Origin: Escherichia phage ERS-1
Reading direction: 5' to 3' (one strand)
DNA: 64,000 bases
Sequence record: PP337211
The notes below the pieces were generated by a model. The model saw nothing but the letters and a program-made list of their open reading frames with translations, was not told the DNA's origin and ran no database searches. The position numbers and the translations under genes were made by a program. Positions 36,991-60,139 of the stretch are shown here, piece after piece (position 1 is the first letter of the stretch; each line of letters opens with the position of its first letter).

Positions 36991-39900
36991 CCCCCCGCGC
37001 GGTTCTTTTGATTCGGTGGGCCCGTGGTGGTCCCGAGCTGGCCGGCCCCCTCCCTCCGCTCCTCCGCTCCTTTCGCCCTGTTGGCCCCCGGCTCCCCGGC
37101 GGCATCTTCGCCGCGGCCTCCGCCATCCGGGCGCCTCGCGGTCCGTGTCGTGGAGGATGCGGCCAGTTGCCGAGTCGATTTGCTGCGGGTCCCTTGGGTT
37201 CTCCTTCTGGGTCGCCCCGGAGGACGTTGGGTGCTCGGAGGAGGGATCTGGCGGGGTGGTCTTTCCTGGCCGGCGTGGACGGCTTGCGCGCCTTCCGGCT
37301 TCGACCTGCCCCGCTCCTTCGCCCGTGCGCGGTGCGGGTGTCCCGCGGCGGAGATCCCCGGGATCGGCACGCCCGCCCGGCGATAGTAACCTCGGCAACG
37401 GCGATGTTGGGCTACGGCCCCTGGCCGGGTCGCTTCGCGTCGGGTACCGCCCAACCCTGCGGGCCAGGTCGGTCTGCGCGGAGCGCATTGCCTTCGGCGG
37501 GCGCTTGGGCTGGAGCCGCCCTGGTCCCGCCCGGCAACTGGACCGTGGAGGGTTCCACCCCGCCGCCGGGTAGGCGCCTGGAGGTTGCGTCGCCCTCGAG
37601 GTGTCTGGCTTCGCCGGATCCGGTTCGGCCGTCGAACGGGATCGCCCCGACCTGAATGACCCCGGCGTCGGCCGGTCGCCGCTTCGTTTTCCTGCCGATC
37701 GGCGCTGCCGGTTCGCGTTGTCGTCGTGATCACCTTCCTCCTCTTTGTTTGATCTCGCTTTGAAATCCCGGGGCCTTTGTTGCGGCATCCCGGACCACTC
37801 GCCGCCCTCCGCCTTTTTAGGGGCGGGCCTCCGTCCGGTTGAAGGGGTGAGCGGCGGTGGTCCGCTGGTCCCGGTGTGCGACTCCCAGTCGCGGGAACCG
37901 ATAGGCCCCCGGCGGGGGTTGATGAAGTAGCGTGGGGCGACCGCCTCCGAAGCGGTGCGGAACCGATAGGCCCCTGTGCCCTGCCACTCCCCGCGGCGGG
38001 GTTTCCTCCGGCTCGTCCGCCTCCCGGCGGCGGGCGCTTCGCCTTCCCCTTCTTGACCTTGCGGACGCGGGCCTTGCCGACCGGGCTGTTCGAGAAGGCG
38101 AGGTGGAGGGCGTAGCGCGGTGACCGTCCGCTGGCCGTCGATTGGCTGAGTTCTCCGGCTTTGGGTTCGGAAGAAGTCCGGCTCCTTTGGCTCGCCCGGG
38201 GGGCGGTCGCGTCCGCTCCGGCAACCTGACCATCCTGCAGGGCTGACGCGGCGGCGGGTGAACCTGTGAGCCCAGGGGGGTGAATCTGGATCTTGTGCCC
38301 TGCTGCGCTGGGATCCCTGTGACGTTCTGGAAGGACTGGGCCGTGGTCTGGAAGGACCTTCACCCCCGGGCCGTCTGCCCGTGGAAGGGTGTAGGCCCGG
38401 TGGGCGACTCCGGCCCCAGGTGGTCGCCCGGGAGGTCCGGATGAAGTCCTTTGCCCCGCTTCCCCGTCGTTTGTGGCGGGTTCGGTGGTTTCTCCGGTAG
38501 GGGTTGTTGGTCGAAGCCCGGGGCGGTCCTGTCCCGGGCCCGTGATCGGTCCCGACTCCGGCGGCGGGGCGGCGGGCGTCCGCCTGAACCTGCTCCGCCT
38601 GCCGGCCGCCGCGAACCGGGTTGCCCTTTGGCCTGGCGGGTTGAAACGGAGGTCTTGGCCTCCTGGCGTGGGCGTAGCCGTTCCCTTCTTGGTTTGAAGG
38701 GAACCTCCCGGGATGTACCCGGCCCTCGGTCCCGGTTCTCCTTCAGTTCTGGCCCTCCTCTCGTCGTCCGTTCCTTGCCCGTGCCGCTCCGCTCCTCCCT
38801 GAGGTCGCCGCGAGCCGTCGCCGGTCGGACGCCCGGGCCTTCTGCGCTGTTCCTCACAGCCTCCACCTGCCGACGGAAGGGCGAAGGCGAGAAGGCGGAG
38901 GCCCCCGTGGATCGCCGCGTCGGAAGGTTTGCCGGCGGCCGCTCCGCCTTGGGCTTGTACGTCCCGTGGGGCGCTTGTTCGGGGTCTTGGTTTGGTGCTG
39001 GCCCTCCTTCGGGTGCCGATGAATCTGGTGCCAAGCGGTCCGGGTCGCGCTCCTCGCGGATCGCCTCCCGGTGCCCGCCCTCGATCCGTGCTCCCGTGCC
39101 AAGCCCCTGGCTCGCCCTGGAAGGCGAGCTGGTGCGCTTCCCCGGTCGGCGCCCGCTCCGGGTAGGTGAGCTGGGCGGCAGTCCTTGCCACGTTCTTCCT
39201 GCCCGTGCCCGTCCGTGGAGTTCGCTGAAGTCGCCCGAGGCTTCGACTTGGCAACGGTACGCGGCCCGTCCTCGAAGGCCCCGCGGGCGGTTTGGCGTTG
39301 AATCTCCGCGAAGTGGCGACGGAAGCGGGCCGCGCGGAACTGGAGTTGGTGGGCGACGGACGGGCCGCCGAGGACCTCGTCCGCGGTGTGATGCCCTGCC
39401 CGCTGTCCGTAGTCGCGGACCTCCTCCGGCTTCGCGGAGGGTACGGCGGCGGCGATTGCCTCGAAGGCGACGGCCGGGTAGCCTTGCGCGCTGCCTCCTC
39501 GCCCTTCTTCGGGCGTAGGTTCCGAAGAAGCGATGGCCGGGTTGTTCGTCTTGATCCGTGTTCGTCTCCGTGTCGATCCGGGGTTTGTCGTCGTCCGGCT
39601 TCGGGAGGAGGGCGATGGCGCCCGCTTCGCGGAGTTCCTTCGGTGGAGCGGTCGCGGTCCCGGGATCGCCAGGCCGGTGAGCCAACCGATGAGCCGGCGT
39701 GTCGGTGGCGGCGGGTCGGCTTCCCTGGAGTCTTGGGCAAACACTCCCGGCGCTGGACCCGGTGCACCTGCTCCGAGGCGAGGACGCCCCGGGCGATGAC
39801 CTGAACCCTCCCGTCCGTGAGGGAGGCGTTGCCGGCACTCCTCGGCTGGGTACGGCCGGGCTGCTTCGTCCGTTCGTCCCTGCCGGCCCTCCGTGGAGTT

Positions 39901-42871
39901 CCCCGAGGCGCTGATCTGCCTGCGCCACTTCCCCGTGGCTTCTCTGGCGGTTTGAGGTAGCGAAGGCGGCGCGCTGCTCCTGGTTTTCGTTCTGCTGCCT
40001 TCGCCCGTTGGCTTCGAGGCGCTTCTGCTTCTCCGGTACGTCGCGGCGAGTTCCGCCGAGCGGCCCCTCCCCGAAGGCCCGGACCGCATCCTGGGAGGCC
40101 ACCCGGGTCGATGTTGTCGCCGTACTTCTCCCCCTGGTACTCCGCGGCGGCTCCCGCCGTCCCGATCGGTCTGGAGGAGGCGCTGCTGGCTCGTGGCTGG
40201 CTGGTCGATGTCCGTGGAGGACTTCGCTGGCGGACTGGCGATGCGATCGGACCGTGACCTGGTACTTGCGGGGGTCCTCCGGGTTGCGCCCGAGGCGGGC
40301 CTGGCACGCCTGGATGGTAGTGGTTGTGCTGGTTCTCCTTCGGCGGTGGGGGTTGGCTTTCCGAGGTGGCCGCGGCCCGTAGACGTTCGCTGTCCTGGCC
40401 CTCGAAGAAGCCCCCGGCCTGGAAGGTCGGCCACCGTCCTTCGGCTCCGGCGGCGACCCCCTCCGCGGACTGGTCCGTTGGGGCGGCGTCCGCGGACTCG
40501 AAGCCCCGGCGGTGAAGAAGTGGCCGGAGTCGCTGAGGATGTAGAACTTGTCCGGTTGTCCCAGCGCGCTCCCCGGCTCCGGAGGTTATCGCGTGCTGGA
40601 CTTTCTTCCGCACGGGCTCCGGTCCGTTGCGGCGGCGGTTCACCCCCATCTGGAAGCTTCGCCGGCCCCCGAAGGTCGTTGCTTCTCCGCGACCTGGGCG
40701 AGGGTGATGAAGATGTTTGCGGGTCCTTTGCAGTTCCTGGACCTGGCTCTGGTCCAGTGTCTCGACCGGGACGGCGGCGACCGTGGCGAGGCCAGTGACC
40801 TGCTCCGCCACCTCGCCCGGTCGGCGGCGACTTCCGCCGGGCGCTTCGCCGAAGGCGTCGTCTGCCCTGCGGGTGATCGATTCTTGGGTTTCGTCGCTCG
40901 TTTGGTTCTCCGAGGTTCGGGGTACGGTTGCCCTGGGGTCGGGCGGGATCGTGCCTGTCCTGCCGCTCGAAGCGGGCCGGGTCCGGCTTCGCCCCACCTC
41001 CGCCGGGAGGACCCGGACGGAGGGGCGAGGCGTGGGGAATTGCTGCCGATCTGCGGCTCGCCGGACCGTCTCCTGGCGTTATAGGGGCCGGTCCTCCGGT
41101 GCCGCCTGCGTGGCGAGGTGGGCCAGGGCGAAGATCCTGCGGTTTCGGTCGGGCTCTGCGCTTCGAGGTGGTCGGTGGACTGGAGGAGGTCGCCGGGGAG
41201 GGGCGGGCGTCCTCCGCCTCGCGCTTGCTCCTGGAAGGCGTGCCGTGGGTTGTCGGAACAGCTCGTGTCCTGTCTTCCCCGCCCTGCTCCTCCTTCGGCA
41301 GGTCCGCGGTGTCGGCGGGAGGCTGCCCTGCCCCGGCTCGTTCCGCTCCTGGGCGTCCCGCCCGAGTTCGTTCCTGTCGCTCCTGGAACTCGCGTTCGGC
41401 CCTCGCCTTCTGGGCGTGGGCTTGTTGGTGGATGCCGTGGACGGCCCGGCGGCGGTCGGGCGTCTCCGGTGAGACGGATGGTGGTCTTGCGGCTCAGGCG
41501 GTTCTCCGGTGATCTGTTCGCCCGGAAGGGAGGCGATGGTGTCGGCTTGGTTCTGCGGTGCGGGTTTCAGTCGCACCTGGCCGGTGGCGGAGGTGGATGA
41601 CCCTCAACGGCGTCCGGCCTGTCCGGTCCCCGGAGGTGCGCTTGCTGATGTAGATTTTGCCCGCTGCCCGGCCTGGACCTCCTCGCCCTGAGCCGCCAGG
41701 ATGATCGGGTACTCCTGGACGGCGAAGCCCTGCTGCTTGCAGAAGCCGCGGCCTTCTCCGCCGGTCCGTTCCGCTTGCCGGCGGTTGGGTCGCCTCCTCG
41801 CGGAGCTGGTCCCTTTACCCGGCTGCGAAGCCTTCGGCGCGGAGCGGGGGCGAGGAGTCGAAGCTGCGGGCGAGTTCGGAGACGGTCGCCAGGAAGGGCT
41901 TGGACGGCTCCACGCCCTCGAACTCCGCCTTCGCCGAAGGTCGCCTTGGGCGCGGTGACGGCCTTCTTGACGGGGGAGCCGTTGCGACTTGCAGAAGCCC
42001 GCGACGGGACGGCGGCGCTGATGTCCCCTTACCCTTGATGGCCCGATCTTCCCGTGTTCGGCCTTCTTCTGGATGTTGTAGGTGAACTGCGAGGGGTTGT
42101 CCTGCCGGTAGGCTTGTACGCCCTGGCAGACGAAGTGGGACGGGCCGGGATGGATGTGGACGGCCTCGTGGCGCTCCTGGGTCGCTGGCAGGATGATGTC
42201 GGAGCGGAGGCCGGTGTCCCGGCCCCCGCCCGGGACCCGGTTGCGGTTTCGTCCGCGGCGACTTCCGGGACCTCGCTGGCCTCGAGCCTCGCCCCGTTCG
42301 TCCTTCGTGTTGCAGTGGCTCGCGGAAGGCTTGCCCACTTTTCCCTGCTCCGCCGACCTCCGTGGTGAAGCCCGGACGGCGGTTGTTCGCTTCGCTACCG
42401 TTGAAGTCGGTTGACCGGACGTGATCCCGCTTGATGCCGAACTCCGGCTTGCGCTTCCCGGCGTGAATGGTGATGTCGTGGCCCTCGCGGAGGAGGATGG
42501 CGATGGCGCAACTGAGGCCGGTCCCGAAGAAGCCGATGGCCCCGGGGGTTCTCCTTCCAGCTGACCCCGAAGGTGGTGATGGACTTGGGGTCAAATGATG
42601 CCCTTGTTGCGGAAGATTATCCGTTGTGACTCCTCTTGGGTTGTTGAAGGGACCTTACTCCTCCCCTTGCCGGCGGTCCGGCAGGGCTCTGTCGATCTGG
42701 GGAGCCGTCCGCGTTGCCCCGCCCCTCCGGTTGTAGCTGATATGAACCTCCGGGCGGTCCGGTAGTCTGGAGACCCTGCTGGTGCCCCGGTGGTGACGGC
42801 GAAGGCGCAGCGGAGCCTGCCGGCGTGGTCGTGCCCCGCCGGCGTCCCTTGCAGGCCGAAGGCGATTGACT

Positions 42872-42979
42872 TCAACGAATCGCAACGGCTTTGCCTGGTC
42901 CTCGCGCCGACTTCTTGCGGTTTTGCGCCGCGCGGGATCGGGTGCCCGTGTATGCGGCGGAAGGCTTCTTGTAGTTCAT
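42872..42979 (-). CDS. Small basic protein (35 aa as read; may be truncated by a frameshift)
   Basis: rc AAAGGAGCAGCCCATC-ATG (ATG is complement of 42977-42979): MNYKKPSAAYTGTRSRAAQNRKKSARGPGKAVAIR then stop; ~65 nt downstream of the promoter at 43.05 kb. Confidence 0.3.
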   Translation of the reverse strand: MNYKKPSAAYTGTRSRAAQNRKKSARGPGKAVAIR

Positions 42980-43081: not shown

Positions 43082-43599
43082 GTTTGGTGGTTTGGCGCGC
43101 GGCGGATTTCCCGCCGGACCTGAAGGCGGGCGTTGAGGGCCGCGCGGTGGTCGGAGGAAGTCCGCGGCACGTGCACCTGGGGCTCCCCCCTCGGTGAAGC
43201 GGACCTTGCAGCGTCCTGGCCTGCTCCTCCGTGTAGGCCATCCCGCCCCCTCGGCTCCCGCTTCGTCGCTTCCGCGTGTCGCTCGGCGGGGGTGCTCCTC
43301 GGGAACGGCGGCTTGTCCGACTTCGGGCTGTCCTTCTGTAGGCTCCTGGGTCGGTCGACCTTGGGCGAATCGAACGGGCTGCCGGGTCTTGTCCCTGTGC
43401 GCCCGGACCTGCTCCGCGGCGGGAGGTGGGCGCAGGCGCGCTCTCGATCGTGCGCCTCGAAGCCGTTCGTTGGTTGGAATTTCCGCCAGTTTCTGCTCCG
43501 ACTGCGGCCTGCTGTCCGGGAAGGCCCGGTGAGCGCTTGCCGAAGCCGGTGCGGCTGGCGTGGAGTTCGGCCTGGTCGCGGAGGTCGTTGGCGTAGTCG

Positions 43600-46400
43600 T
43601 CCGTGGGTCCTTCACCACCTTGCCGCTCCGCCTGTCCTGGTCGGTCTTGAGGCGGCCCTCCCCTGGCTCCTGGCCTTCCCTTTGGGTTTCCGGTGAGCGC
43701 CGTCACTTCTGGTCCTGCAGGGCGCGGGTCTCGGGGGGACTGGCGAACCTCGAAGGTGCTTGTGCCGGGTGAGGAGGAAGTGGAGGCCTGTGTTGGGCCC
43801 CTGTTGTCCGGTTGTCCTTGATGCGCTTGAAATAGGCGTGGTCCTGCTTGTGGCCCTCGCCCCTTTCGTGACCGAGAACCGGCGCCTTCCGGGCCCCGTA
43901 CCTTCCCGGACCCTTCGTTCGAGGCGAGGACCTGGTGGAGGTGCTTCGGCCGCTTCCCGTCCGCCCTTGCCCTCGATCCCTGGTGTTCGGTCATCAGGGT
44001 CGAACCTGCTTTCGTGCTTCTTGTCTCCGGCGAAGAAAGCCATCACCGAACAGCAGGACTAACCAGATCGCGGAGGTGGGCGTTGAAGGAGCCCACCAGG
44101 CGCTTCGAGTCGCTGACTTGGAGGTAGTGACGCCCAACATCGTGCCCGTGACCTTGGCGAAGAAGGACTTGCCGGTGCCGCGGCGACCGCGGAGGACCAC
44201 GGCCCTCGCCCGGGCCGTCCGGGGTGCTGGACCTCCGCGCCCCTCCCGACAGGTAGCGGCAGTGCTCCGGGTTCCCTGAGCCTGGACGTCGTCGCGGATG
44301 TGGTCGGGAAGGGCGCGCTCTCGCCCGGGAGGGAGTCGCCAACCCGCGCCTGGGTCGTAGGCTTCTTCCACCTCCTGGCCGGGGGTGGTGATGGGCTCGT
44401 GTTGGCGGCGCTGGGCGATCCGTTTGTAGGCTCCCGCGGCCTTCTCGATGGGCTTGCCCTCCTCCAGCGCCCAACCACTTCACCTTGATGTGGCGGTAGC
44501 GGTTGCGGAAGTCCTCGAAGGACTGCTCGCTGATTTGGTCCGCTTCATCGCTGGGTCCCGAACCTCGCTGACGATGCGGCACTTCTTCTGCCGATGTCCG
44601 CGACTGACGGCGTGCTTCTCGTTGAAGCTTGCGCGGCCAGGGTCCACCGCCTCCCCGCGGGCGTTCGATCTGCCGTGGGCGTAGCCTTCCCGTTCGGCTT
44701 GTCTCTGACGCTCGCGGCGATTTCGTCGGAGCCGGTGATCACCGCGAAGACGTTTGGGGACCTCCGCCGCCAGGTTGGTGCCTCCAACCTGGCTTCCCGA
44801 CCGGCAGAGGGGTACTGGTCGGGTCCGTGGGTCCTGCCCGGTGCCCTGCCCTGCGTGGTCGCTGATAGCCTTCCCGCGCCGGCCGGGCTCCGGCTCCTCC
44901 GTCCCGATGTCCGGGACGTTGCCCGTGATCTTGCCTTTGCACGGCCCCCCGGCCTGGCCCTGCTCCGCCTTTGGACTCGAACCGCGGGGGCGAATTGTTC
45001 GATGGGGCAGCTGGCCTCGTCGCTACGAGACGGCGAGGGTCGGCTGGCGACCCTTCTTGACCTTCTTCGCGGTGGGCGTCGATCGTGCCCGGGAGGCGGG
45101 CGATGCGAGCTCCGTTGTGGCGGTCCGCCTGAAGCACCTTCTCCGGCTGGATGTTGTACGCTTCCGCTCTGAGCCTTCGCCGCCGATCCGGCGATGTCCG
45201 CTTGTCGGACGGGTTTGGCTGCCAAGCCCTGCATAGCCCCCGCCCGAGTCGATGATGACCGTGGGCTTGGCGTGTAGGACTGGAGGCTTCGGCGCCGCGC
45301 CCGCTCCTCCTCGAAAGCCTCCCCGGCTCGCGGTCGATGTCCCGTGAAGCCTGGCGAGGCGGGCCAGTTGTCCTCCTTCGAGGCTTTCACGTTTGATTCG
45401 CCGGCGGACCGGGTTGGCGTGGAAGGCGTTGCGCTTGCCCTGATGCCCTTCGATCGCTCTGCGGCCTTCTGCCTGTGGTTGGGCGGAATGCCACCGTCTC
45501 CGTTTTCCCGTCCGGGATGATGGCCGTTGGGTACCACGGCCTCCCGGTCCCTTTCCTCCTTCAAGAAGTCGATCGCGTCCTTGGTCTTGTGTTTTGGTGT
45601 TTTCTGCCCATTTGATCCCCCGGCTGAAGGATATTCCCGAAGGCGCTGGCCGCGCTTTCCCCCGTCCTCCTTTGGATGACCGGAGGCGTGTGCCGGAGGC
45701 GGCGGCGATTTCGCGCTGGCGTTTTGCCCGCCCGGCGGCGGATGGGAACCGGCGTGGGCTTCGGCTCGTCCGAGGTGCTGGCGCGGTCTGATCGTCCGGC
45801 GGCGGTCCGCTTCCCGTCGCAGCGGTCCGGGCGCCTGTCCTTCGCGGCTTCGATCGGTTGAGGCCCTTGCGGCGGCGGTGTAGGCTTTCGCCTTGGTTGG
45901 TGCGGCAGGCCGGGCAGGACTCCTTGGTTCTTGGAAGGCGTGTCCGCTTGTGCGGCCCCTGCCCGTTGTCGTTCCCGCGAACCTGGCCCTGGTGCCGGCT
46001 ACCGTCCTTCCAAATAGACGCCGTCTCGTTCCCCCGACCTTCGGCGAGGAAGGCCCGGCCCCCGGCCTTGCGGCGACGGGCAGCGTGTCCTCGCTGGCGG
46101 TGAAGTGGTCCGCTCAAGCGGTCCGCCCCTGGGCGGCCTGTGTTGGTGAATTTCAATTTGGTTGCTGGTTGTAGTTCACGTCCGGGTCCCGGCAATGGGC
46201 TTCTCCTCGCCGGTCCGGTTGGCGACCGGATGACGGGGCGGAGGGAGTCCGCGTTGCGGCTTTGCTGGTTGCCCTCCTTCCACGTCGTAACGGCGGGCGA
46301 CTTCCGGCCTTTGACGCGCCGATTCCCTTCCTGCCCCCTCCCCCGGATCGCGGCCCGAGTAGTCGATGCCCGGGAAGGCGACCCGCTTCGCCTGCCTTCC
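43600..46400 (-). CDS. Primase-polymerase (PrimPol) / SF3 (D5-like) NTPase replication protein; frame broken; boundaries approximate
   Basis: PrimPol-type motifs KPTVIIDSGGGYAG and AYNIQPEKVLQADRHNGARIARLPGTIDAH (~45150-45270); C-terminal P-loop AVVLRGRRGTGKSFFAKV followed by GRHYLQVSDSKRLVGSFNAHLRDL (~44050-44200). Confidence 0.55.
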
Positions 46401-46429
46401 CCGCGGCCTCCAGGCTGTTGGACCTGGGG

Positions 46430-46445
46430 AAGAAGTATAGAGCGT
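46430..46445 (-). promoter_or_regulatory. Probable promoter -10 element of the same family (TATACTTCTTC); -35 degenerate
   Basis: agtata at 46434-46439 (rc TATACT) upstream of the primase-helicase gene. Confidence 0.3.
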
Positions 46446-47094
46446 GAAGCCGTTGTGAGCCGCAAAAAGTTGAGCGCGATTTGACCTCTGCGCAGGCTAC
46501 GTGCCGGCAATTCGTACCGCGGTCCGGGTGCAGGGCTCGGCGAGTTGTTCGTGCCCGGGCGGAAGCCGTTGAACCCGGTCGAAGCCCGCTGTCGTTGGGC
46601 CTGGAACCGTGACGGCTCCGACCTTCGTGGAGGGTCCTTGTCCTGCCCGCGACGTGTTGGGCCTGCCGAGGCGGCGGTCCCTGGTGGTTGCGGTCCTGCG
46701 ACGTTCCCGAGGAAATAACCGCTGGAGCCGTCAAGGACTCTGCCCCTTCTCGCGGCCTAGGGCCTGGCGATACCGTTGCTGCCCGCAAACTTTGGCAGGA
46801 CGGTGCCGTGATGTCGCTGCGCGGCCCTCGATCCTTCCGGTGACGGTCGGGGGTTGCCCGCGCGGCCCTTCTTCTCGACCGCGCGGACCTGGTCCGGTTC
46901 CCCCCTCACCCGCTGTGGTCGATGAGGTATGCCTTGTCTGTCTCGCGCTCGATGACCCTTCCGAGGTCCGGTGTTGTCGTTGCTGCGGCGGTGTTGTTCT
47001 CTGGGGGTTCGCCCCGGACTTCCTCCGGGCGGCGGCCCTTTGCGCGTGTGTTGGTGGGTGAGCAAGTGACCTGCGCGTCTGTTGATAGGGACTT

Positions 47095-49611
47095 TCACGG
47101 CGGAATTCCCTGTCCTGCCCGGAAATACCCTGCTCTGCCAAATTTTGCCGCTGCCTTTGACGGGAGTTCCAGCGGCGTGCGCCTCACGTGGGCGGCTTCC
47201 GCGGCCTCCTTCGTCGTGTACGCTGAAGGCGATCTCGTCGTGGACCTGGATGATGATGTCCGTCTGGCTTCCTGTGCCTCTACGCCGTCCTTGGTCTGGT
47301 CTCGCGGAGGAGCCCTGAATCTGCGGTTGGTCCCTTGTGGTTCTTGCCCGTTCTCCCGTCCTCGTCCTTCGGGAAGTGGTGCGGCGACCGCTCGGTGTCG
47401 TGACGTAGCCGGCGGCCTTCGCCCGGGCTTCGGCCTTTGCCGCTTCTCGATGCAAACGGCCTTGTGGTCGAAGGTGTCCGGGAGGGCCTGACCCTCCGGC
47501 CCCGCGGCCTCGAACCTCCGCGCCCCTTCCGCGACCTGGCGCTGACCCTCCGGGCTGTTCGTGAACGGCCGGAAGCGGGGGCGTGCGGGCGGCCATCGGT
47601 CGGGAGCCCGAGCTTGCGCTCCTCCCCTCGCCCGCCTGTCCCGGTAGGACCTGCCGGTAGATTTCCTTGGCGTCCTTGCGCTTGATCCCCGCCTGTCCGC
47701 CATCATCCGGTGGTTGTCGGTGTTCGGGTCGTTGCGGACTGTCCCGGGCTTCGATTGTGGACCTGCCCTGCTGGTGCCCGTTTGGTCTTTGCCGGGTGGC
47801 GTAGTGGACCGCCTTGCGCGGCTCCTGCTGGCTGTAGTCGTTGGACGCCCTGTGTTGGCCTTCCTCCGGGAGGTAGATGGCCCGCCGCGGCGGCGAACTC
47901 TTCCCCAGCCGGTCGCTGCTGGAGGTTCGGGTGTTCGCTGGACTGTCGCCCGTAGGCAGGCGCCGCGGTCCCGTCGCTTTCGTCTCTTCCCTTCCGGCGG
48001 CGGAGCTGGTCGAACGTCCCGTGGAGGCGCCGTTCGCCATGTGGTCCGGGACGGACTGGCGAAGGTCGTGCGCCTTGTTTGCCTTCCGGCGCGTTCGAGG
48101 AGGCTCTGCCTCGGGTGGCTGATTGAGCCCTGGCTCCTTGTCGATGTTGGGCTTGCCCTGGGAGGTTGTTCGGCTTGATGCCGATGTGTTCGAGGGCGGG
48201 GGCGATCACCTCTGGCTTCCCGGTACGCTGCGGTGATCCGGTGGCCGGTGATCGACCGGACTTGGGCGTGGGCCTCCGTCTCCTTCTCCGCGCCGGGCTG
48301 GTCGGTTGTCCTGGCGGTCGCGTCGATTGCACGCCCCGGCGGCGAAGGCCCGTGAGGATCGGGGCAGGCCGGACTCCCTGGTGCAGGTTGCCCCGGGTCC
48401 TGCCGGACCTCCCGCTCCTGACGGCGGAGGATGTTGGGTGCGCGTGTCCTCCTCCGCGCACTTCCCGAGGCCTTGGCCGGAGGTCCCGGTTGCCCTTCTT
48501 CGGGCAATCCTGTACCACCGCGGCGGCGCGTGCTTCGTCCTTGCCGTGGAAGCCCCACCGCTCCGCGATAGCTTGCATGCTGTAGCCGTCGTGGAGTTTG
48601 GCAGTTGCGGGTCTGCGATCTGGATGTCACGGAAGTAGCGGACCCGCTCCAACTCGAGTGCCGTCCCCGGCGAGGAAGTCCGTTGGTGCCAGGTTGGCCT
48701 CCCAGGTCGCCGGTGAGCACCTTTGCCGGGCGCGGAGGTAGGCCGGTACGCCCTCCGGCCGGTAGGTTGCCCCCGCCTTCGCGTCCGATGGGGAGTACCC
48801 GCCCGGGCCGTCCTCGATTGCGAAGCTGATGCCGGTGATGTAGCTGTTCGGCGACGGCCCGCCCCGGCCCCGAGCTCTCGAGGTCCGGTCCCCGCGTTCC
48901 TGCCGATGGCGACCCGCTCGGCCCTCCCACCAGGGAGGGTGCTGAGGTCCGGGGCCTCCCTGTCGCTGGAGACGGTCGTGAACAGGGTGGTTGGAGGTAT
49001 GAGGCTTGGCTCCCACCTCCGCAATCATCTTGCGCGAGGTTCAGGTGCCGCGGTCTGGCTCCGGGTCGGACTCCCGGAAGGTGAGGATGTGGACCGCTTC
49101 GGCTCCGTCCTCCGTCCTGCCCGTTCGCGGCGGCGAAGGCGTCCGGCATGACGACGGGGCGGAGCGGGGCGAGGACCCCGTTGCGGGCGCCGGACCCTCT
49201 CCCGTAGTGGATCGCCTTCTCGGAGGTCCTGGCGCGGGTCCTCGTGCTCTTGCGGTTGCGGGTCGCGCACTGGTCGCGCGGCCTTCGGTGTAGCGGAGGC
49301 CGTTGGTTCCTCCCAGCTCCTGTGTTGGACGGGCGAGCGGCAGCGCTCATCCGTCCTTGCTTTTCGTTTTGTCCTAACTCTCTTCCTTTGGTTTTGCAGC
49401 CGGAGCGTCTGCTGGCGGTAGTAATACCGGGAACCCCGCCTCCCCGTCGGTGTTGTATGGACCTTGCGGAGGTGCGCGAGTTCTTCCGTGTCGAAGGCGT
49501 AGAACTTCTGCTGCGGGCTCCTGCCGGTTGCTGGCCTCTCCAGTTGTTCGCGCACCACCTCCTCGAGAAGTCCGAGAGACGGCGATGCGGCTGGCGCTTC
49601 GCTGCCCGCAA
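47095..49611 (-). CDS. Family-A DNA polymerase (Pol I-like) with 3'-5' exonuclease domain; frame broken
   Basis: Exo I motif QQKFYAFDTEELAHL (~49490), pol motif A SNDYSQ (~47830), pol motif C TDIIIQVHDEIAFSV (~47245); order and spacing appropriate for a Pol A. Confidence 0.65.
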   Translation of the reverse strand: MRAAKRQPHRRLSDFSRRWCANNWRGQQPAGARSRSSTPSTRKNSRTSARSIQHRRGGGVPGITTASRRSGCKTKGRELGQNEKQGRMSAAARPSNTGAGRNQRPPLHRRPRDQCATRNRKSTRTRARTSEKAIHYGRGSGARNGVLAPLRPVVMPDAFAAANGQDGGRSRSGPHPHLPGVRPGARPRHLNLAQDDCGGGSQASYLQPPCSRPSPATGRPRTSAPSLVGGPSGSPSAGTRGPDLESSGPGRAVAEQLHHRHQLRNRGRPGRVLPIGREGGGNLPAGGRTGLPPRPAKVLTGDLGGQPGTNGLPRRGRHSSWSGSATSVTSRSQTRNCQTPRRLQHASYRGAVGLPRQGRSTRRRGGTGLPEEGQPGPPAKASGSARRRTRAPNILRRQEREVRQDPGQPAPGSPACPDPHGPSPPGRAIDATARTTDQPGAEKETEAHAQVRSITGHRITAAYREARGDRPRPRTHRHQAEQPPRASPTSTRSQGSISHPRQSLLERAGRQTRRTTFASPSRTTWRTAPPRDVRPAPPPEGKRRKRRDRGACLRATVQRTPEPPAATGWGRVRRRGGPSTSRRKANTGRPTTTASRSRARRSTTPPGKDQTGTSRAGPQSKPGTVRNDPNTDNHRMMADRRGSSARTPRKSTGRSYRDRRARGGAQARAPDRWPPARPRFRPFTNSPEGQRQVAEGARRFEAAGPEGQALPDTFDHKAVCIEKRQRPKPGRRPPATSRHRAVAAPLPEGRGRENGQEPQGTNRRFRAPPRDQTKDGVEAQEARRTSSSRSTTRSPSAYTTKEAAEAAHVRRTPLELPSKAAAKFGRAGYFRAGQGIPP

Positions 49612-52574
49612 GGGCGCACGGGTTCGGACTTCGGCCCCGCTCTCCCGTCACCGTCTTGCCTCTCCGGACGGCGCGACCGCTTCGTTGCCCGTGCTCCTCC
49701 CGGCGCTGCCCTGGTCGAGGGCGTCCGCGGCCTTTGCTGTCCTCCTCGTCGGGAGAAGGCCCGGGAGGTGCCTGGTCGCCTGTCGCGGCGTTCCGCGGCC
49801 TCCGTGCCCTTCCCCAGTTCGGGTGGTTCGCTCTCGCCGGGGCCGGCAATGTCGCCTGGCGGAACGCTCCGCGCAGTCGTGCCGCTTGGACCGCCTTGAC
49901 AGGTTCGGCGACGGGTGCGGGTGGAAGGAGGCTCGACGCCGTAGCTGCGCTGGGCGATGTTGTACTGACCGTGGTGCGGGACGATGTGGTCCGGTGGACC
50001 GTCCCGGCCTCCCGGGTCGCGGCGATCCGGGCGGAGCGGCGGACGGCGCGGCGGTTGGCTCCTCCGCCTCGCGCTCCTCGTCATGAATCTTGCTTCCCTG
50101 GCTTCCCTTCGTCCGCGTCTCCTCCCTGCCGCGCCGTCGTCATTGCCTGGGCCTCGCGGGCCTCGAAGGCGGCGCGGCGGCGTTGATCCGTTTCCTTCCC
50201 CGGCCGTCTTCCCGTCGGTGGCGGCGACGTTCTCCGCTCGCCCCGGGCGGCGTCGAAGCGGAGGGGTTGGACGCTTGAAAGCCTTGTGGGCCTTGAGGTT
50301 GGGATTGCTCGCGGCGGAAGAAGGGTTGCGGAAGCCGTCGGCGTCCGGCTCGCCGGTGCCCGGCTCCTGGTCGCCTTCCTGCCGGTCCGTGGAGGCTTGA
50401 AGCGGAAGGGCTCCGCGATCCCGGCGGCGTAGGGGTCGGGCGTTCCTTCCCGGGGTGTTGGGTTGGCGGCGAGGTCCGCGAGCGGGCGACCTTGCCCAGT
50501 ACCCTCATCGGCGTGGAAGTTGGCGCTGACTTGGCGGTAGATGCCTTGTTGGCCCGAGGTCCGGCGACGTCGGCGGAGGTAGCTGAAGTGGACCGCGTTG
50601 GCCCCTGTAGGCTCCCCGGGTCCCGTCGTCGGAGCGGTTGGTGCGGTCATGTCCGGCCGACCGTCGTGATCTGGAAGATGGCCTGAAGGTTGGCAGGGGA
50701 GGTCCTTGCCTTGGCGGCCTGGTCCGCGTCCGCGCTCCTGTCCAGGACCTGGCGGTGGTCATCGCGGTTCGCCTTCGGGCGGCGATGATCTTGGGCAGTG
50801 GTCCTCGAAGAAGTGCTGGCGCCCTGCGGAAGCCGTAGGCCCCGTGGAAGGTCCTGCCGTCGTCCAGTAGCTGCGCTTGCGACCGGCGAAGCGGGGCGCG
50901 CATTCCGCGTCATTGCGTCTGCCCAGCATCCAGAGGCTTTCCATCAGGTGGAAGAAGGGGTTGGCGTCCCGTTCTGCCCGGCGCGCTCCGCCGGCGGAGG
51001 CGCCGGTGGCGACGGGTTCCGGGCGTCAAGCGGGGCCGTTGCGCGAGTCGCGGCGGACGCCCTCGAAGGACCTGTCGAGAGGGCCTCCCGGGAGGGCCTG
51101 TTGTACGTTGCGGGCTTTGATGACTTTGTCTGTTAATTTGAAGATGACGTTGCCGGTCCGGCGAAGGACGCGGAAGCGGTTTGCGGGTGGTGCCCCGTTA
51201 AGCCGGCGTTCGGTTCGCGGATCGGGGGCGATAGCCCGGGACGGCGATTTTAACCGCGAAGGGGCGGGCGAACTGCTCCGCCTCGGCCCGGTTTCATTGT
51301 TTCTGACCGTGGTGACGGAGTTCGTGACGGCCTCCGCGGAGGACTTCGCCTTGGACTTCTCCGCGTCCGCTCGTCCCGGGCCTCTTCTAGGTGTCGGTGG
51401 TGGCTGTGGGCGCTTGGCGTGGTGTACCGGCGTTGTACTCGTGGGACTTGGCGATGCGGCGGCGCTCCCCGAGGTCGCGCGTGCGAAGCGTTGGCCCTCG
51501 AACTGGACCTTGACGTCGCCGTGGTCGGCAAGAAGCCGTCCGGCGCCTGCCCTTCCCGCTTGCGGAGCGGTTCCGGGTAGATGTCGTTGTACACGGCGTC
51601 CCCAGGGTGAACTTCTCCGCCTCCCTGGGCTTTTTTCGCGGGCCTCGAAGGCGTGCTGAGGACCCCTTGCCGCTCGCGGATGTAATTGGACCCGGCACCT
51701 GCCCGAACCTGGCCTCCAGTTCGTCGATGCCGCCGGAATGGTCCGGCGGCGAGGTTTCGATCCGGCGAGGGTGGTTGCCTTGCGCCGTGGTGCTCCAGCG
51801 GGTTTCTTGCCTTCGTCGGTGGTGCGCTTGCTCGTCGAACTTGGCGTGTGTTCGATGTCCCGGGCCTCGAACCGCGGCCCCCGCGCGGGCTCCCGAGCTG
51901 CGGCGGTCCGAAGGTTTCGTCGAAGCCCCGGGCGTCCGTGTTGGCTTGGCTTCGGCTCGATCAGTTTCCGCGTTCGTCTGCTCCGGGCGGGGCTTCGCGG
52001 CGAGGTCGTGCCCTGCTGGCGGTCGAGCCCGCGGATCGCCCCGGCAGGGCGTTGGCCGGTTCCGTGACGTCCTGGGCGTCGTGGTAGCGGGTGTGGCGGA
52101 GGTCGGTCACCGTTGCCCGGACGGCCCCCGCCGACCAGCGGTGCTGCTGGAATTTGGCCCTGCGCTTTCGAGGGTCGGAACCCGCGGAACCTTGGGGCTG
52201 CACTTGGCGGGCTCCGCGTCGCGCGCCCGTTCCTCGCGGTCCTCCCGGTACGGCCCGGCAATCTCCGCGATGTAGCGGTGCTTGGTCCGCTGTACCCTCC
52301 TTGGAGGGGTCGGACTCCGCGCGGATCGTGAGGCTCCGGGCGCCGCCTTGTTGCCCGCGGCGGCGTAGTCCTCCGGCGCTTCGCCGCTTCGCGGGCTCGA
52401 GTCCTCCCCTTTGCCGGGTTCCCGGCTCCGCCTTGTCCTGGAGAGCGGAGGGTGTCGGCTGTTGATGTAGCGGGCGATGGTGAGGGCGGGTCTTGTAAGG
52501 TGCGGGTGGTCCGCGTAGGGCTTGCGGATGTTCTCCTGGTCCTGGTCGTCCCGGGTTGGCTTCGCGGCAAGATG

Positions 52575-53245
52575 TTAGGGTACTGCCGCCCTCGCGAACC
52601 GGGTCCGCGGTCCGGGGCCGGGCTTCCCGGCCTTGCGGTCGGTAGACGTCGTGCCGGGCCCTTGAAGGCGGCGATGTCGTCGACGCGTGGGTGGTCGGTT
52701 CGGGGTCCTGGTCGGGCTCTCGATGACGGCCTTGATGTCCTTCGGGGCCGTCTCCCTGTGGATGTCGCGGACCGTCTCGCCGTCCGCCGTGGCCTCTCGC
52801 CGGACCCGGGCGATGGTGCGGTGCTTGTCGGCCTCTGGTTCTCCTCGACGGGCTTCCCGCCGTCGCGCTCCTGGATGTGCTTTGGGCTTCCAGCGGCGTG
52901 TCCTGAAGGCCGGGTTGTTCCGCCGTTCGCCTTCGACCCCTGCGCGTATGTAGATGGGCACTGACACCTCGCGCCCTCCAGCCCTACCGCCTTCACGTCC
53001 GGGCCCCGCCAACCAGCTCCGCGACGGCCTTGGCCGCGGCTTGGGTCTTGATCCGGTCCGGACCGGCGGTGGTCGCTCCGGCGGCGGCGGGGGTAGTCCC
53101 CGATGATGGCGATGCCGCCCGGCGCGTCGCCGGGATCGGCTTGTGGTCCGGGACGATGACGTCGATGACGTGGCCTGCGGATCGCGGTCCTGGCTGCGGG
53201 TGTGGTCTTGCCGGAGCCGTTACTGCCCTGCGTGATGTACTTCAT
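52575..53245 (-). CDS. P-loop NTPase with Walker A in the first 15 residues (ParA- or kinase-like); frame broken
   Basis: rc GGAGAACCCAAG-ATG (ATG is complement of 53243-53245): MKYITQGSNGSGKTT...; later peptides GHVIDVIVPDHKPIPA, ADGETVRDIHRETAPKDIKAVIES. Confidence 0.35.
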
Positions 53246-53556
53246 CTTGGGTTCTCCACCGGTTGAAAACGGCGGAGCCGGAGCCCCGCCTGGTTGCTGT
53301 TGGTTGCGTGATCGGGATGATCTTGCGCTCGCCGCCGTCCTCCTCCGGCGGGTCTGGTTCCACGATCTTCTTGAAGTCGGGCGAGCGGCCTTCGCCGCTC
53401 CGGCTGGTTCCGAACCGGCGGGCTTGCCCTTCGTCCGCTGTCCGCGCGGTGGAGACCTGCCGGTGGGGCGCGTCCCTTGACCTCCTGGAAGGGCTGGCCC
53501 GTCGGTCCGGTGAAGGTTCGGCACGCGCTGGCCGTGGCCGGTCTGCGGTGATCATT

Positions 53557-53955
53557 TCACGCCTTCCAAAGCCAGTGCCGGCTCCGCCGGCTCCGGGCTT
53601 CCCGCGGCGGGTCCAGGCGTCGCGTAGGTCGGTTGCCGTGCTCGTCGCCAGTTCCGGTACCTGGCCGGTGGGCTTCGACCCGGCACGGCTCCGCGATGGT
53701 CTTTTCGGGCTCCGGCCTGGTTCTCCGCGGGCTGTCGGCCAAGGCTTTGGTACGCTCCGGTCCGAACCGCTTTGGAGGCGTTCGATCATTGCCGGGGCCC
53801 GCTGTAGCCCGCCTCCCGAATTTTCGGCGATTGTGGTCGTTGCCGACCGCGGCCTGGTGCTCCAGCGTGTGGCGGATGTCGTCGTGGGTGACGATCCCCG
53901 GGATCTGCGGATTGACCTGAATGGAGGTGTAGATGCCCTGACGGCGCTCGGCCAT
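53557..53955 (-). CDS. Hypothetical protein
   Basis: ATG is complement of 53953-53955: MAERRQGIYTSIQVNPQIPGIVTHDDIRHTLEHQAAVGNDHNRRKFG... Confidence 0.25.
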   Translation of the reverse strand: MAERRQGIYTSIQVNPQIPGIVTHDDIRHTLEHQAAVGNDHNRRKFGRRATAGPGNDRTPPKRFGPERTKALADSPRRTRPEPEKTIAEPCRVEAHRPGTGTGDEHGNRPTRRLDPPREARSRRSRHWLWKA

Positions 53956-54143
53956 TTCGTCAGATGGTCCTGAAGGCTGATGGCCCCGGCAGGCCGTGCC
54001 GTTGTGGTCGTTGCCGGTGTTCTGTGACTTCTGGGCGTAGCTGTAGGGGTTCCGCTTCGGGTGCCCATGGCCCGTGACGGTAGCCGAGACGGCTGGAAAG
54101 AAGATGGTGCCGGGCTCCCGAAGGCTTCCGCCCCCGCCGGGCG

Positions 54144-54680
54144 TTATGGGCGCCGTCCCGGTTGGGAAGGGGTCCGTGAAGCTGGAGAAGTAGCCCGCGG
54201 CGGAGGTCCGGGACTTCGAGAGGGTTTGCGGACCTGCTCGCCGGAGTTCGCCGGGACGCCGATGAGGCCGGTGCCGCGGTAGCCCCGGAACCCGCTGTCG
54301 ACGTAGCAGGCGCGTGCCGCCTGTAGCCCTGGAGGTTCGTTGATCGCCTCGCTGAAGGGGCGGGCGCGGGAGCCTCGCTCGTCGTTGCGCTTGTCCTGGT
54401 ACCTGCCCTGAAGGGGCTTGGCGTTCGGGATGCGGATGTGCGGGAGGTAGGTGACGTCGTTTGAAGCGGCAGGCCCTCCACCTCCTTCTTGTCGTCGTCC
54501 TTCGCGTCGCGGACCTTCCCCTCTGCCCTTGCCGGAACTTCGCGCGGCTGGTCCTGTGGGTTTCCTTCTCCCCCATCGGGTCCTGGAACTCCCGTTGGTT
54601 CGGTCCGGCGGGCGAAGACTTGTAAGCCTCCTGCAGCGGCTTCGCCGGTTCTTCTGTCCTTGCCGCGTGGTCGGTGCCAT
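54144..54680 (-). CDS. dUTPase / dCTP-deaminase-fold protein (tentative); frame broken near the N-terminus
   Basis: rc GAAGGAGA-ATG (ATG is complement of 54678-54680); peptide [71 protein letters not shown], resembling the RSS...(I/V)D(S/P)G(F/Y)RG core of the dUTPase superfamily. Confidence 0.35.
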
Positions 54681-54704
54681 TCTCCTTCAACTGTGAAAGT
54701 CAGC

Positions 54705-54738
54705 GCCTTACCCGGAAGAAGTAAAGCGGCGTTAATTC
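54705..54738 (-). promoter_or_regulatory. Weak member of the promoter family (-35 TTTACT intact, -10 degenerate)
   Basis: rc CGCCGCTTTACTTCTTCCGGGTAAGGCGCTGACTTTCACAG directly upstream of the RBS at 54681-54688. Confidence 0.3.
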
Positions 54739-57049
54739 GGCCCGGCTCGCCCGTCGCTTCCGGGCGGCTCCCCTGGCCTTCGTCTCCTCCGAACGCCGGC
54801 GACCGGCGAACTGCCCGGAACCGTGCGGCGACCCTTCCGCGTCGGGTCGTCTGGTTGTCCTTTTGGGACCCGAGGGTGAACGCTTGGGGTTGACGGTGGC
54901 GGTCGGTCGCTGTGAACCTGGCGTCACCGCTGTCGGGGATCGGCAATTGTTCGAAGGGCTCGAGGATAGCCGATTCCTGCCGCTTGTAGTCGATGTTGGC
55001 GTGTACCGTGCTGAAGTACCTGGAGCAGGTCGGGTCCTGTGCTCCCGTCTCCGGGTCCTCCTTACAGCGGGCGTTTAGGTGAGCCGGTCCGTCACGGTTA
55101 CCGATGTTCGGGCGATGGGGCGTGGATGGACGGAAGCCTGTCGAGCGGGTCGCTGCGTTTCGGCTTTTGGGACGGTAACGGGTTGGGGAACGGGGCGGAG
55201 GCGTCCCGGGCCGCGTCCGCGTACCCGTAGCCCTCGTCCGGATGGGTCGATCCGGTTGCCCGGTCCGGCCCGCGGCCTTCTCGATGTACTCCCGGCTGGC
55301 GTCCTGGCTCCGCAGATCCGCTTGTGGAGGATGACGTCGTAGTTGCGGAGGCTCGCCTCCTCCAAGCCCTCGAGTGCCCGGCGGCGACCGTCCCCCGAGC
55401 CGACACCGATGACCGGGTCCCGGCAGTCCGGGAGGTGCGGGGCGGTGCGGACGGCCTCCGCGGCGTTCTCCGTGATCGACTCCGGGAGCTTGGGGCGTTG
55501 GCTGTAGCTGTCGTGGTAGTTCTCCTGGTGCTCTGGCCGGACGGGCGATCGCGGAGCGGCCCGCCGGGATGTCCAGGTCCGCCCCGAGCTGGCGAGCGTG
55601 CTGCTGTTGGACGCGCGGGCGTCCGCGGCCCCGTCGCGCTTGAAGCGGGGCCCGTAGTTCGCTTGCACCCGTTCCCCAGCTGCTGGCGTAGGCGACCGCC
55701 CTGCCCGCCTTCGAGCGGCACGTGTCCGGCTGCCGATGGTGGTTCTTCTGCTGGTCTCGATATGGGCGAGGCCCCGTGAATCTCGCTGAAGGACGGACCC
55801 GGAGCGCCCTGCTCTCCCGCTTCAGGATCGGCACCCCGTCAGCTGGTGTTCGACCGGGGCGTCGTTGACGATTGTTGCTGCTCTTGGGCGTGGTCGAGGA
55901 AGGCCCGTGCGGCGGAGGCGGCCTGCCTCGGTCGAGCCCGCCGTCGATTTCCCGGATGTCGTTCCGGGTGGGAGCTGGCCCTTCGCGGGATTTTCCGGTT
56001 TGCCGCCGCACCGTCTCCACCTTCTGGATGTTCGGCGGGCGGTTGCCGGGTGGGGCGAGGTCCGCGAACTGCCGGTTTGTAAGTCCGCGACCCTGGGCGA
56101 TCGCCTCGCGCTTGGGCTTCGCGTTCTCCGGGTACTCGTGAGCCTCGCGCCGCTCCGCCGTCGCGGCCTTCTCCGGTCCTTGAAGCGAAGACGGCGGCGT
56201 TGTCCGAGTCCGCCGGCATCTCGACCGGTTCCGGCTTGTCGCGATCTTGAAGCTGATCGGGACTGAAGCCGTTGTGCTCCTGGGCGCGGGCGGAGACGGT
56301 GCGGAAGGGGCGCTCCTCCTCCGTCGCCCGGGCTCCCCGGTGGGTGCCCCGCCTCCCGGGCGGTCGCCGAGCGGGCCTGGAGGGAGGTCCCGCAGTCGGC
56401 GGTGCGACCCTGGCCTGTAGCGGCGGCGCTCGCGTCCCCGGAGGCCTGTGACCCCCGGCGGGCGTCTCCTCCTCGTGGTGGGCCGCGACGTCCCTTTGCG
56501 GAACCTCGCCCTCCTTCTCCAGGAAGGAGGCGACCCCGGCGTGGAGTAGCTCCAGGTTGAGGCTAGCCTGTGGGCGGGTGGAGAAGTCCCCCGCCTGCCC
56601 GCGCCGAACCAGGGCCGTGCACACGGGGTCGGATCGCGGTGGTGATCCGGTGTCGGCCGGGAACGTCTCGATGTCCGGTTGGGGCAAGTTTCTGCCGTGT
56701 CTTTTCTCTGGTATGCGTGACCGATTTTCCCGCTCGTGTCCTTGCACATGTCCGGTTGGGTAATTGGCGACTGAAGGAAGGCTCCGTGCGGACTTCTTCG
56801 TTGACGTGAATACGGGATGGACCGTCTGCCCTTGCCGTCGCCGTCCTCCGTGATCCGGGTGAATCCCGCAGGTAGCTTGAGGGCTCCCTTCTGTATCCCC
56901 GCTCCGCCGGGCACCTCCGGCGGAGGGTAGCCGCGTGCGCTCCGAGGCTCCCAGTGGCCTTGCCCTGCTTGGGCTGGCGGGCTACCGGCGGGCGTCCTGC
57001 CTTCGGCGGACTTCTGCGGCTCGTGGGCCGGGATCGCGTGGCCTTCCGG

Positions 57050-57690
57050 GACCTCACGTGGAACCGCTTGTGCCGTCCGCGGCGAAGGCGGAGCGGCACC
57101 CGCAGCCCTTCCGCTTCATGTCCTGCTGAAGCCGGAGGGCGTGGCTCGGTCCGGGCTTGTTGCTGCCCGGGCTTCGACCTGTTCCTGCCTTGGTCGTCCG
57201 TTTCGGGGCGGGATCCTGTATGTCGGGAGACGCCCGCTCCAGCCCTCGCGGCGGGGATCGGGGCGTGGCCCGGGCGGCCGTGTCGGCGCCGCGCGGGGCG
57301 CGGGCCTTCTTCTCCTCCGCGGACTTCGGAGCCTTCTGGGCCTTCGGAGGCGACGGGGCGGGGGTTGCGGTTTGTTTGCGGTTTCGACCTTCTGGGTTCG
57401 GCCTGCTCTGCCGCTCAAACTTCCGGGTGCGCTTCGGCATAACGCGCCAGGCATCTTCTGGTGTGGGGCAATGGCGGTGGTCTTGTTGGCGAAGCGGCGC
57501 ACGTTCGGACGGACTTGCCGTTGCGGAAGGTGCCGATGACTTCGTCGGACCTGCTCGACCAGGGCTGGGCCGGAGGGCTCGCTGGGAGGCTTCGGTGTAG
57601 GCGACGTTGTCGAAGTTGATGGTGTTGGCGGTAGGCTCCTTTTCTGGGGTTGAGGTGCGATCTTGTTCGACCGTGAGAGAATCTTAACCC
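57050..57690 (-). CDS. Hypothetical small protein(s) downstream of RNR copy 2; frame broken
   Basis: rc peptides [69 protein letters not shown]...EEKKARAP. Confidence 0.25.
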
Positions 57691-57712
57691 TGGCCCCCGA
57701 AGAAGTAAAGTG
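57678..57712 (-). promoter_or_regulatory. Sigma70-like promoter of the recurring family (-35 TTTACT 57704-57709, 17-bp spacer, -10 TAAGAT 57681-57686)
   Basis: rc CACTTTACTTCTTCGGGGGCCAGGGTTAAGATTCTC. Confidence 0.45.
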
Positions 57713-58201
57713 GTTTGACTAACTTTTTCAGGTTCTCGGTCCGAAGGCCGGGTGCCCGTTGGACGGCGGAGGGCGAACCGTTGAGGCCTTCTTCCCTGAA
57801 GGCCCGGGCGGCGTCCCTCGTGCCCTGGTTCTCCTGTACCGGCTGGTTGCGCCCCGAGGTGTGCGGTACCCTGGCGACCTCGAAGCCCTGCGACGTCCTG
57901 GCAAACCCTTGCCGGTGGAAGTCCTGGCGCTGGGCCGGATAGCCGAAAGCCTCTGCGACGTCTCCGCCGGGTCAGGAGGATGACGTGCCGACCGCCGGTG
58001 GTGGGCCTCCACCGCGGCCGCGGGCACCCCGCGTCCCGGGCGGGCCGCTTGTCGTCCCGCTTCCGGCGCCCCGGGAAGGTGTGGAGGGTGTCGGCGCGGT
58101 CGAAGGTCTTGAGGTAGTCCTTGGCGATAGGCCCGCCTGCTTCGCCCTACGCCCTCCCGCGGAGGACCGCGGAGGGGAGCCAGGGGCCGGTCGGGTCCGT
58201 G

Positions 58202-60130: not shown

Positions 60131-60139
60131 GTTGAGGGC

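Follow-up and report, generated by a model that had tools for sequence, protein, structure and literature searches.

The stretch examined here, 64,000 nucleotides of sequence record PP337211 (Escherichia phage ERS-1; the whole stretch is referred to as the window), had been predicted to carry, at positions 43600-49611 and further downstream, a self-contained set of replication and nucleotide-metabolism genes in a siphovirus-like genome of a high-GC host. By its sequence the window falls in the genus Yuavirus as an M6/PAC9-like siphovirus with Pseudomonas aeruginosa as the host, which bears out the predicted type of genome and host. We consider it probable, at roughly 0.8, that the window is an uncorrected long read of a single strand of native DNA, which covers a known M6/PAC9-like phage over 1.1 genome lengths, and that its errors at the dinucleotide TG were induced by modification of the DNA. 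The read platform was most likely nanopore, and thymidine hypermodification is the likely reason why the sequence looked fragmentary. Both the phage and its replication gene set are already known, and the module is present in dozens of sequenced Yuavirus genomes.

Comparison of positions 43600-49611 to the phages in GenBank by blastn gave matches to 88 phage records, and in 57 of these the match extends over 80% of the query or more; no record identical to the segment was found in this search. An exact 39-mer taken from the window was likewise without a match in viral, metagenome and genome collections. The best matches are all Pseudomonas phages of the genus Yuavirus (PAC9, M6, PaTs-2 and others) with about 82% identity and 97% coverage, where the 6012 bases of the query pair with about 6395 subject bases. 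Phage vB_Pa-PAC9 (PV426651.1, 61,675 bp; PAC9 hereafter) was used as the full-genome reference. Positions 1-55953 of the window correspond to PAC9 2287-61675 and positions 56082-63956 to PAC9 9-8202, and the entire PAC9 genome is covered by 13 collinear blastn blocks with a raw identity of 76-83%. Raw identity to all known relatives lies at 78-83%. Gene order and orientation are identical genome-wide to those of the Yuavirus phages PAC9, M6 (NC_007809), YuA, LKO4, PaTs-2 and SN1, which also carry the same replication module and hypermodification cluster as the window. Beyond the mosaic differences described below, the remaining divergence from the Yuavirus genomes is sequencing error.

The error spectrum was obtained from the alignment of the window to PAC9, which stands in for the true sequence, and is described in the orientation of the minus strand. 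Thymine is kept at only 58% of its positions (15.5% are called as C and 13% are deleted), compared to 81-90% for the other bases, and deletions (3932) outnumber insertions (937). The loss of thymine depends on the base that follows it, being 81% in TG, 13% in TC, 27% in TA and 31% in TT. The call made at a TG thymine carries next to no information (C 28%, deletion 25%, T 19%, A 17% and G 11%). The error amounts to 0.81 at the TG thymine itself, to 0.33 and 0.39 at the positions ±1 and to 0.29 and 0.24 at ±2, and it has fallen to about 0.09 by ±7-8, which means that it spreads about 5 nucleotides to each side. The thymines of TA and TT were considered as separate targets and rejected, because their loss of 27-31% vanishes at a distance of 6 or more nucleotides from TG and is therefore a neighbour effect; at least 6 nucleotides away from any TG, the thymines of TA, TC and TT are kept at 93-94%, like C and G. 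No longer motif around TG could be identified, since the flanking positions from -3 to +4 are without influence and the loss is 75-86% throughout. The loss at TG is uniform over all eight 8-kb bins of the window (77-86%). This uniform strand asymmetry speaks against a stitched or mixed-strand contig and indicates that one strand was read throughout.

The mechanism that we propose for this pattern is as follows. The strand that was read would be the minus strand of the window, and at essentially every 5'-TG-3' of that strand the thymine would carry a bulky modification, the expected base being 5-(2-aminoethyl)uracil. The modified base would disturb a k-mer-sensitive sensor, with the consequence that base calling would fail at the thymine and at about 5 nucleotides on each side of it. 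Miscalls at TG would in turn erase start codons, stop codons and the codons for Cys, Trp and Met, leaving a genome that looks fragmentary. The disturbance of a k-mer-sensitive sensor points to nanopore sequencing. Residual error away from TG consists of 5.6% substitutions, 2.2% deletions and 1.0% insertions; this excess of deletions over insertions disfavours a PacBio-type read, although not decisively, and the spread of error over ±5 nucleotides fits the k-mer of a pore better than a PacBio-type read, again without being decisive.

A complete M6-type thymidine-hypermodification cluster was located at 50.1-56.7 kb (homologues at 50141-56693). Here and below, gene positions are those of tblastn matches to PAC9 proteins (except for the HNH insert, which PAC9 lacks) and domains were assigned with Pfam on the intact PAC9 homologues, or on those of other intact relatives where these are named. 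The genes of the cluster are:

50141-51127, minus strand, thymidylate-synthase-like enzyme (tblastn coverage 0.98; Thymidylat_synt 4.6e-18)
51185-51690, minus strand, Nmad5 protein (tblastn; Nmad5 3.8e-32)
51764-52662, minus strand, helical-domain protein of the 5-hydroxymethyldeoxyuridine (5-hmdU) DNA kinase (tblastn; HMUDK_hel 7.1e-56)
52716-53245, minus strand, P-loop protein of the 5-hmdU DNA kinase (tblastn; HMUDK_HMUD1 7.4e-18)
53304-54675, minus strand, radical-SAM isomerase, homologue of M6 gp53 (tblastn coverage 0.95; Radical_SAM 1.7e-4; phrog_9252 E=0)
54778-55093, minus strand, HNH homing endonuclease (gap in the PAC9 alignment; tblastn)
55099-55875, minus strand, pyridoxal phosphate (PLP)-dependent decarboxylase-type enzyme (tblastn; PALP 5.7e-10)
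55931-56693, minus strand, amino acid:DNA transferase (tblastn; ADDT PF18724 1.3e-46 for LKO4 gp12)

Judged by these homologies, the genes at 50-57 kb that had been counted as nucleotide metabolism are those of the M6-type thymidine-hypermodification pathway. The thymidylate-synthase-like enzyme is a putative dUMP hydroxymethylase that would supply 5-hmdU, a role assigned from the published pathway (PMC5889632, PMC8989533). M6 gp53 has been described as a radical-SAM isomerase with an iron-sulfur motif (PMC8989533); its counterpart in PAC9, the Cys-rich CTVGCAFC, is garbled in the window, where Trp of the same gene is also changed to Arg. The dUTPase-fold protein predicted at 54.1-54.7 kb has to be withdrawn, as the open reading frame (ORF) at 54147-54680 has no Pfam match and shares 76% identity with residues 76-158 of the radical-SAM isomerase, inside whose gene it falls. 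In public records the radical-SAM gene is annotated as a DNA repair photolyase, and the P-loop protein of the 5-hmdU DNA kinase is labelled as terminase small subunit in LKO4 and in PHROGs. The HNH insert lies between the radical-SAM and PLP genes and is shared with LKO4, PSP2 and NEU2024 but not with PAC9; only 10 phage records match it, and its counterpart LKO4 gp14 carries the HNH_3 and NUMOD3 domains (Pfam).

The extent of the disturbance agrees with what has been published for M6. In this phage 5-(2-aminoethyl)uridine (5-NedU) replaces about 30% of T and was found, with liquid chromatography coupled to mass spectrometry (LC-MS), as a single extra nucleoside derived from T, with a motif described as "not yet known" (Lee et al. 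2018, PMC5889632). On the minus strand 36.6% of T stands in TG, and over both strands of PAC9 the share is 32.8%. With 81% of the minus-strand TG thymines lost, about 30% of T would be affected on the read strand, which agrees with the published value for M6, although it is an indirect proxy. According to Flodman et al. 2019 (PMC6449724), TG and TC are over-represented among restriction-resistant sites, and TG is where the M6 kinase acts in SP8 DNA. In the same DNA about 23% of 5-hmdU is phosphorylated by M6 gp54 (Lee et al. 2021, PMC8989533), the homologue of the kinase encoded at 52716-53245 with 51764-52662. In positions 20000-69999 of the Bacillus phage SPO1, a related hmU phage taken as a proxy for SP8, TG makes up 21.4% and TC 20.5% of T, and the 23% phosphorylation therefore fits better with TG alone than with TG and TC together (42%). 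The window thus resembles the M6-type 5-NedU system in that all pathway genes are present and the affected fraction of T agrees; it differs in that it is known from sequence alone and in that the error map implicates TG only, at nearly every site, and not TC.

On balance, we lean towards the view that in M6-type phages the modification falls on the T of practically every 5'-TG-3', without any further sequence requirement and without acting on TC, TA or TT, in which case the 5-hmdU DNA kinase would recognise the bare dinucleotide TG and nothing else. No paper mapping the 5-NedU motif by nanopore was found in our literature searches. If true, a rule of TG only would sharpen the open or ambiguous statements on TG and TC in the literature. 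The localisation to TG makes it possible to predict, cheaply and in a form open to test, how specific the 5-hmdU DNA kinase is and also which targets of restriction or CRISPR can be protected by the modification. If the errors are indeed caused by modification, the map of miscalls is a single-molecule, genome-wide footprint of hypermodification at single-site resolution.

Several points weigh against this interpretation. Its basis is the letters alone, and an artefact of the base caller specific to TG could, with low probability, have given the same errors. The true sequence of the phage is represented here by PAC9, and the gap placement of blastn can move a deletion by one base. In the sequence, a disturbed minus-strand T also looks the same as a disturbed plus-strand A. 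Flodman et al. list TC among the resistant sites (PMC6449724), whereas TC is read normally in the window. Finally, our model does not account for a sharp excess of A-to-G miscalls on the minus strand (16% at CA, 13% at TA). This excess, compared to 4-5% at AA and GA, is limited to the single A and leaves its neighbours unaffected. An effect of the opposite strand, in which CA pairs with plus-strand TG, is disfavoured because TA shows the same excess, and a generic bias of the base caller is more likely.

The alternative that survives best is an artefact of the platform, base caller or processing at TG that is unrelated to modification, such as a faulty model, an unpolished assembly of low quality or a deliberately degraded sequence, whether or not the DNA of the phage is modified. 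The generic raw-read error, which is about 9% even away from TG, speaks for it, and so does the unexplained A-to-G bias at CA and TA, which shows that the caller is itself biased by sequence context. Nevertheless, we regard it as improbable, since 81% of TG thymines are miscalled compared to 6-7% of the thymines in all other contexts. A miscall of 81% at a single dinucleotide would go well beyond the error ordinarily expected of raw reads on unmodified DNA. Moreover, a phage group known to modify about 30% of T (PMC5889632) is affected at a dinucleotide that holds 33% of T, the M6 kinase has been reported to act on TG (PMC6449724) and the complete hypermodification pathway is encoded in the window. 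It is less probable still that the plus strand was read and that the errors stem from a modification of the adenine in 5'-CA-3'. An A in CA on the plus strand would formally give the same pattern as a T in TG on the minus strand, but the pathway encoded in the window is one for thymidine (HMUDK, ADDT, radical-SAM, PLP and thymidylate-synthase-like hydroxymethylase genes) and LC-MS of M6 gave one extra nucleoside, which is derived from T (PMC5889632). The PAC9 annotation, in addition, lists no adenine methyltransferase or purZ-type pathway, no dedicated screen of the window or of PAC9 having been made.

That the window holds read errors is evident from a stretch of 5.7 kb which it contains twice, as identified by blastn of the window against itself:

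4-5668, first pass of the duplicated stretch, mapping to PAC9 2287-8202
58295-64000, second pass of the duplicated stretch

The two passes are only 84.6% identical, with 280 gap openings, and their differences must be read errors because copies on one molecule cannot diverge in this way in a living phage. The duplication points to one of three origins, namely a concatemer, a molecule with terminal redundancy or a circular overlap that was left untrimmed. TG thymines are lost in both passes at 225 of 319 sites, and at 161 of these 225 the wrong call is identical. Away from TG (6 nucleotides or more), both passes agree with PAC9 at 89.9% of the positions, and a single pass deviates at 7.4%, which corresponds to a random error of about 4% per pass. 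A base that is shared by both passes and differs from PAC9 is seen at just 1.7% of these positions, which puts the identity of the phage to PAC9 in the duplicated stretch at about 98% or more. The stretch holds genes for ribonucleotide reductase (RNR), a superfamily 1 (SF1) helicase, a single-stranded DNA-binding protein and part of a further helicase, and both passes are of the same strand. In our view the discordant passes, which differ at 15% of their positions, refute the idea that the window is an accurate sequence of a degenerate or hypermutated Yuavirus relic, or of a highly divergent relative whose composition is unusual and whose ORFs are giant: the identity of just 78-83% to every known relative, the extreme AT skew and the ORFs of up to 1744 aa would suit it, but codon periodicity is lacking, a frameshift occurs about every 27 nucleotides in each gene, and the differences cluster within ±5 nucleotides of TG with an identity of at least 98% elsewhere.

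The composition and coding content of the window are as expected from miscalled TG. TG occurs in the start codons ATG, GTG and TTG, in the stop codon TGA and in the codons for Cys, Trp and Met. Miscalls at TG thus erase gene boundaries, reduce T to about 10% of the minus strand, raise the G+C content from 64.5% in PAC9 to 68.4% in the window and create false long ORFs in all frames, and they account for the "protein-like fragments" of the original prediction. On the plus strand A and T make up 10.4% and 21.2%, with an AT skew of -0.23 to -0.43 throughout the window. A total of 322 ORFs of at least 80 aa overlap in all three frames of the minus strand, the longest reaching 1744 aa; they arise from the scarcity of T on this strand, as no stop codon can be formed without it. 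Codon-position periodicity is nearly absent in plots of frame and of G+C at the third codon position, and gene finding by such plots consequently failed. The long ORFs of the window, for example 47095-49611, are artefacts and no evidence of genes.

Compared to PAC9, frameshifting indels occur about once per 27 nucleotides in every gene, with 37-90 per gene (90 in the primase and 71 in the DNA polymerase), and no gene is intact. TGA serves as the stop codon of 75 out of 87 PAC9 genes, and 58 of the 69 aligned TGA stops are lost in the window, as are 66 of 73 ATG starts. As written, the window is thus not a viable genome with intact and expressible genes, a loss that we attribute to read error and not to biology. 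Pfam searches with the long ORFs of the window gave nothing above the curated cut-offs: DNA_pol_A reached 19.6 bits (cut-off 34.3), a score kept low by frameshifts, RNR reached 22.1 bits (cut-off 23.9) and the other ORFs remained empty. Since the excess of G+C comes from lost or miscalled T, inference of a host from composition is biased upward for reads of this kind. Raw reads of hypermodified phage DNA can therefore pass for divergent genomes, with about 80% identity, inflated G+C, an extreme skew and ORFs of giant length, and annotation that relies on ORFs fails on them; scans and databases should screen for this signature.

The replication and nucleotide-metabolism genes were placed in the same way as the hypermodification cluster:

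43303-45603, minus strand, primase/helicase, homologue of PAC9 ORF73 (803 aa; tblastn coverage 1.00, 4 frame changes)
45631-45855, minus strand, repressor-like protein (tblastn of PAC9 ORF74-76, as for the next two)
45914-46249, minus strand, endonuclease
46278-46698, minus strand, dCMP deaminase (phrog_174 1.8e-50)
47098-49003, minus strand, family A DNA polymerase (PolA), homologue of PAC9 ORF79 (664 aa; tblastn coverage 1.00)
49008-49304, minus strand, DUF3310 protein (tblastn; phrog_6047 and phrog_7076 among the matches for 49008-50106)
49361-49519, minus strand, small homologue of ORF81 (tblastn)
49526-50106, minus strand, HD-type phosphohydrolase annotated as 5'-deoxynucleotidase (tblastn, annotation)
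58378-60149, minus strand, RNR large chain, second pass (tblastn coverage 1.00)
86-1781, minus strand, RNR large chain, first pass (tblastn coverage 0.96)
60181-61286, minus strand, SF1 (RecD/Dda/Pif1-like) helicase, second pass (tblastn)
1877-2960, minus strand, SF1 helicase, first pass (tblastn)

All of these genes lie on the minus strand, and the predicted co-orientation therefore holds, by homology to intact relatives only. RNR and the RecD/Dda-like helicase had been predicted at 58.2-60.1 kb and 60.1-61.3 kb, and both assignments hold; their PAC9 homologues match Ribonuc_red_lgC (9.4e-107, 358 bits) and AAA_30 (5e-20) together with UvrD_C_2 (4.4e-14), respectively. The limits proposed for the primase and PolA genes (43.6-46.4 and 47.1-49.6 kb) and for the tape measure gene (15.5-18.3 kb, see below) were shifted because they followed artefactual ORFs. 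The profile searches suggested as a check on PrimPol, Pol A and RNR support Pol A and RNR on the intact homologues, where the primase domain of PrimPol stays below the Pfam cut-off (see below), and give nothing above the cut-offs on the ORFs of the window itself.

The primase/helicase of PAC9 matches DUF5906 (4.7e-22, Pfam) and the DNA primase family phrog_1829 (3.7e-171). Its C-terminal P-loop NTPase of the D5/VapE type (DUF5906), predicted originally as an SF3-type NTPase, matches the helicase region of the NrS-1 primase (6k9c, 3.4e-9), and the Walker A motif GTGKSFF is legible in the window at about 44190. The N-terminal part of the PAC9 homologue scores 18.4 bits for RepB_primase (E=0.002; cut-off 24.3), matches phrog_2478 "DNA polymerase/primase" at 2e-8 and gave no sequence match in the PDB; it appears weakly similar to the archaeo-eukaryotic primase (AEP)/PrimPol type. 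The protein is thus like the NrS-1 primase-polymerase/helicase and the D5/VapE types in its C-terminal NTPase, whereas the likeness of its N-terminus to AEP/PrimPol is weak by sequence. In public records the gene is variously labelled as "integrase", "primase" or "NrS-1 polymerase-like helicase".

For the DNA polymerase, the PAC9 homologue matches DNA_pol_A at 2e-46 (159 bits against a gathering score of 34.3), and the DNA of the window is 84% identical to the PAC9 gene. Residues 44-460 of the Klenow fragment align to residues 58-490 of PolA (3e-42). Since this alignment starts from Klenow residue 44, the protein includes the 3'-5' exonuclease region, as had been predicted. It resembles the Klenow fragment of E. 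coli Pol I and the phage family A enzymes in its exonuclease and polymerase regions and in the C-terminal fingers and palm; it has no 5' nuclease domain. From the published pathway it would follow that this polymerase must accept 5-hmdUTP in vivo. For the biology of the replication module itself our analysis is of little consequence.

The original prediction did not recognise terminase, portal and capsid and left 22-43 kb unassigned. All three are present there by tblastn, together with early genes (tblastn of PAC9 proteins). The structural genes, the last four of which were found with PAC9 ORF36-41, are:

15053-17723, minus strand, tape measure protein (tblastn coverage 0.98, 6 frame changes)
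24623-25485, minus strand, major capsid protein
25702-26446, minus strand, scaffold
27886-29177, minus strand, portal
29342-30690, minus strand, large terminase

Apart from the HNH insert, three places were identified where the window departs from PAC9. Downstream of the small terminase gene, the window has about 950 bases (31842-32797) without a PAC9 counterpart (only 253 bases lie between the flanks there), which correspond to four genes for hypothetical proteins in Pa-L, Pa-S, SN1 and PaSz-4. Conversely, PAC9 42198-42970, which carries ORF59 (a hypothetical protein of 227 aa) with ORF58 alongside, is missing at window 38006-38071, and this gap either reflects true mosaicism or is due to divergent sequence that the noise conceals. 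The tail-fibre region at 13594-14911 aligns to PAC9 at about 71% or not at all, whereas its flanks align at 78-79%, and it is probably a truly divergent receptor-binding segment.

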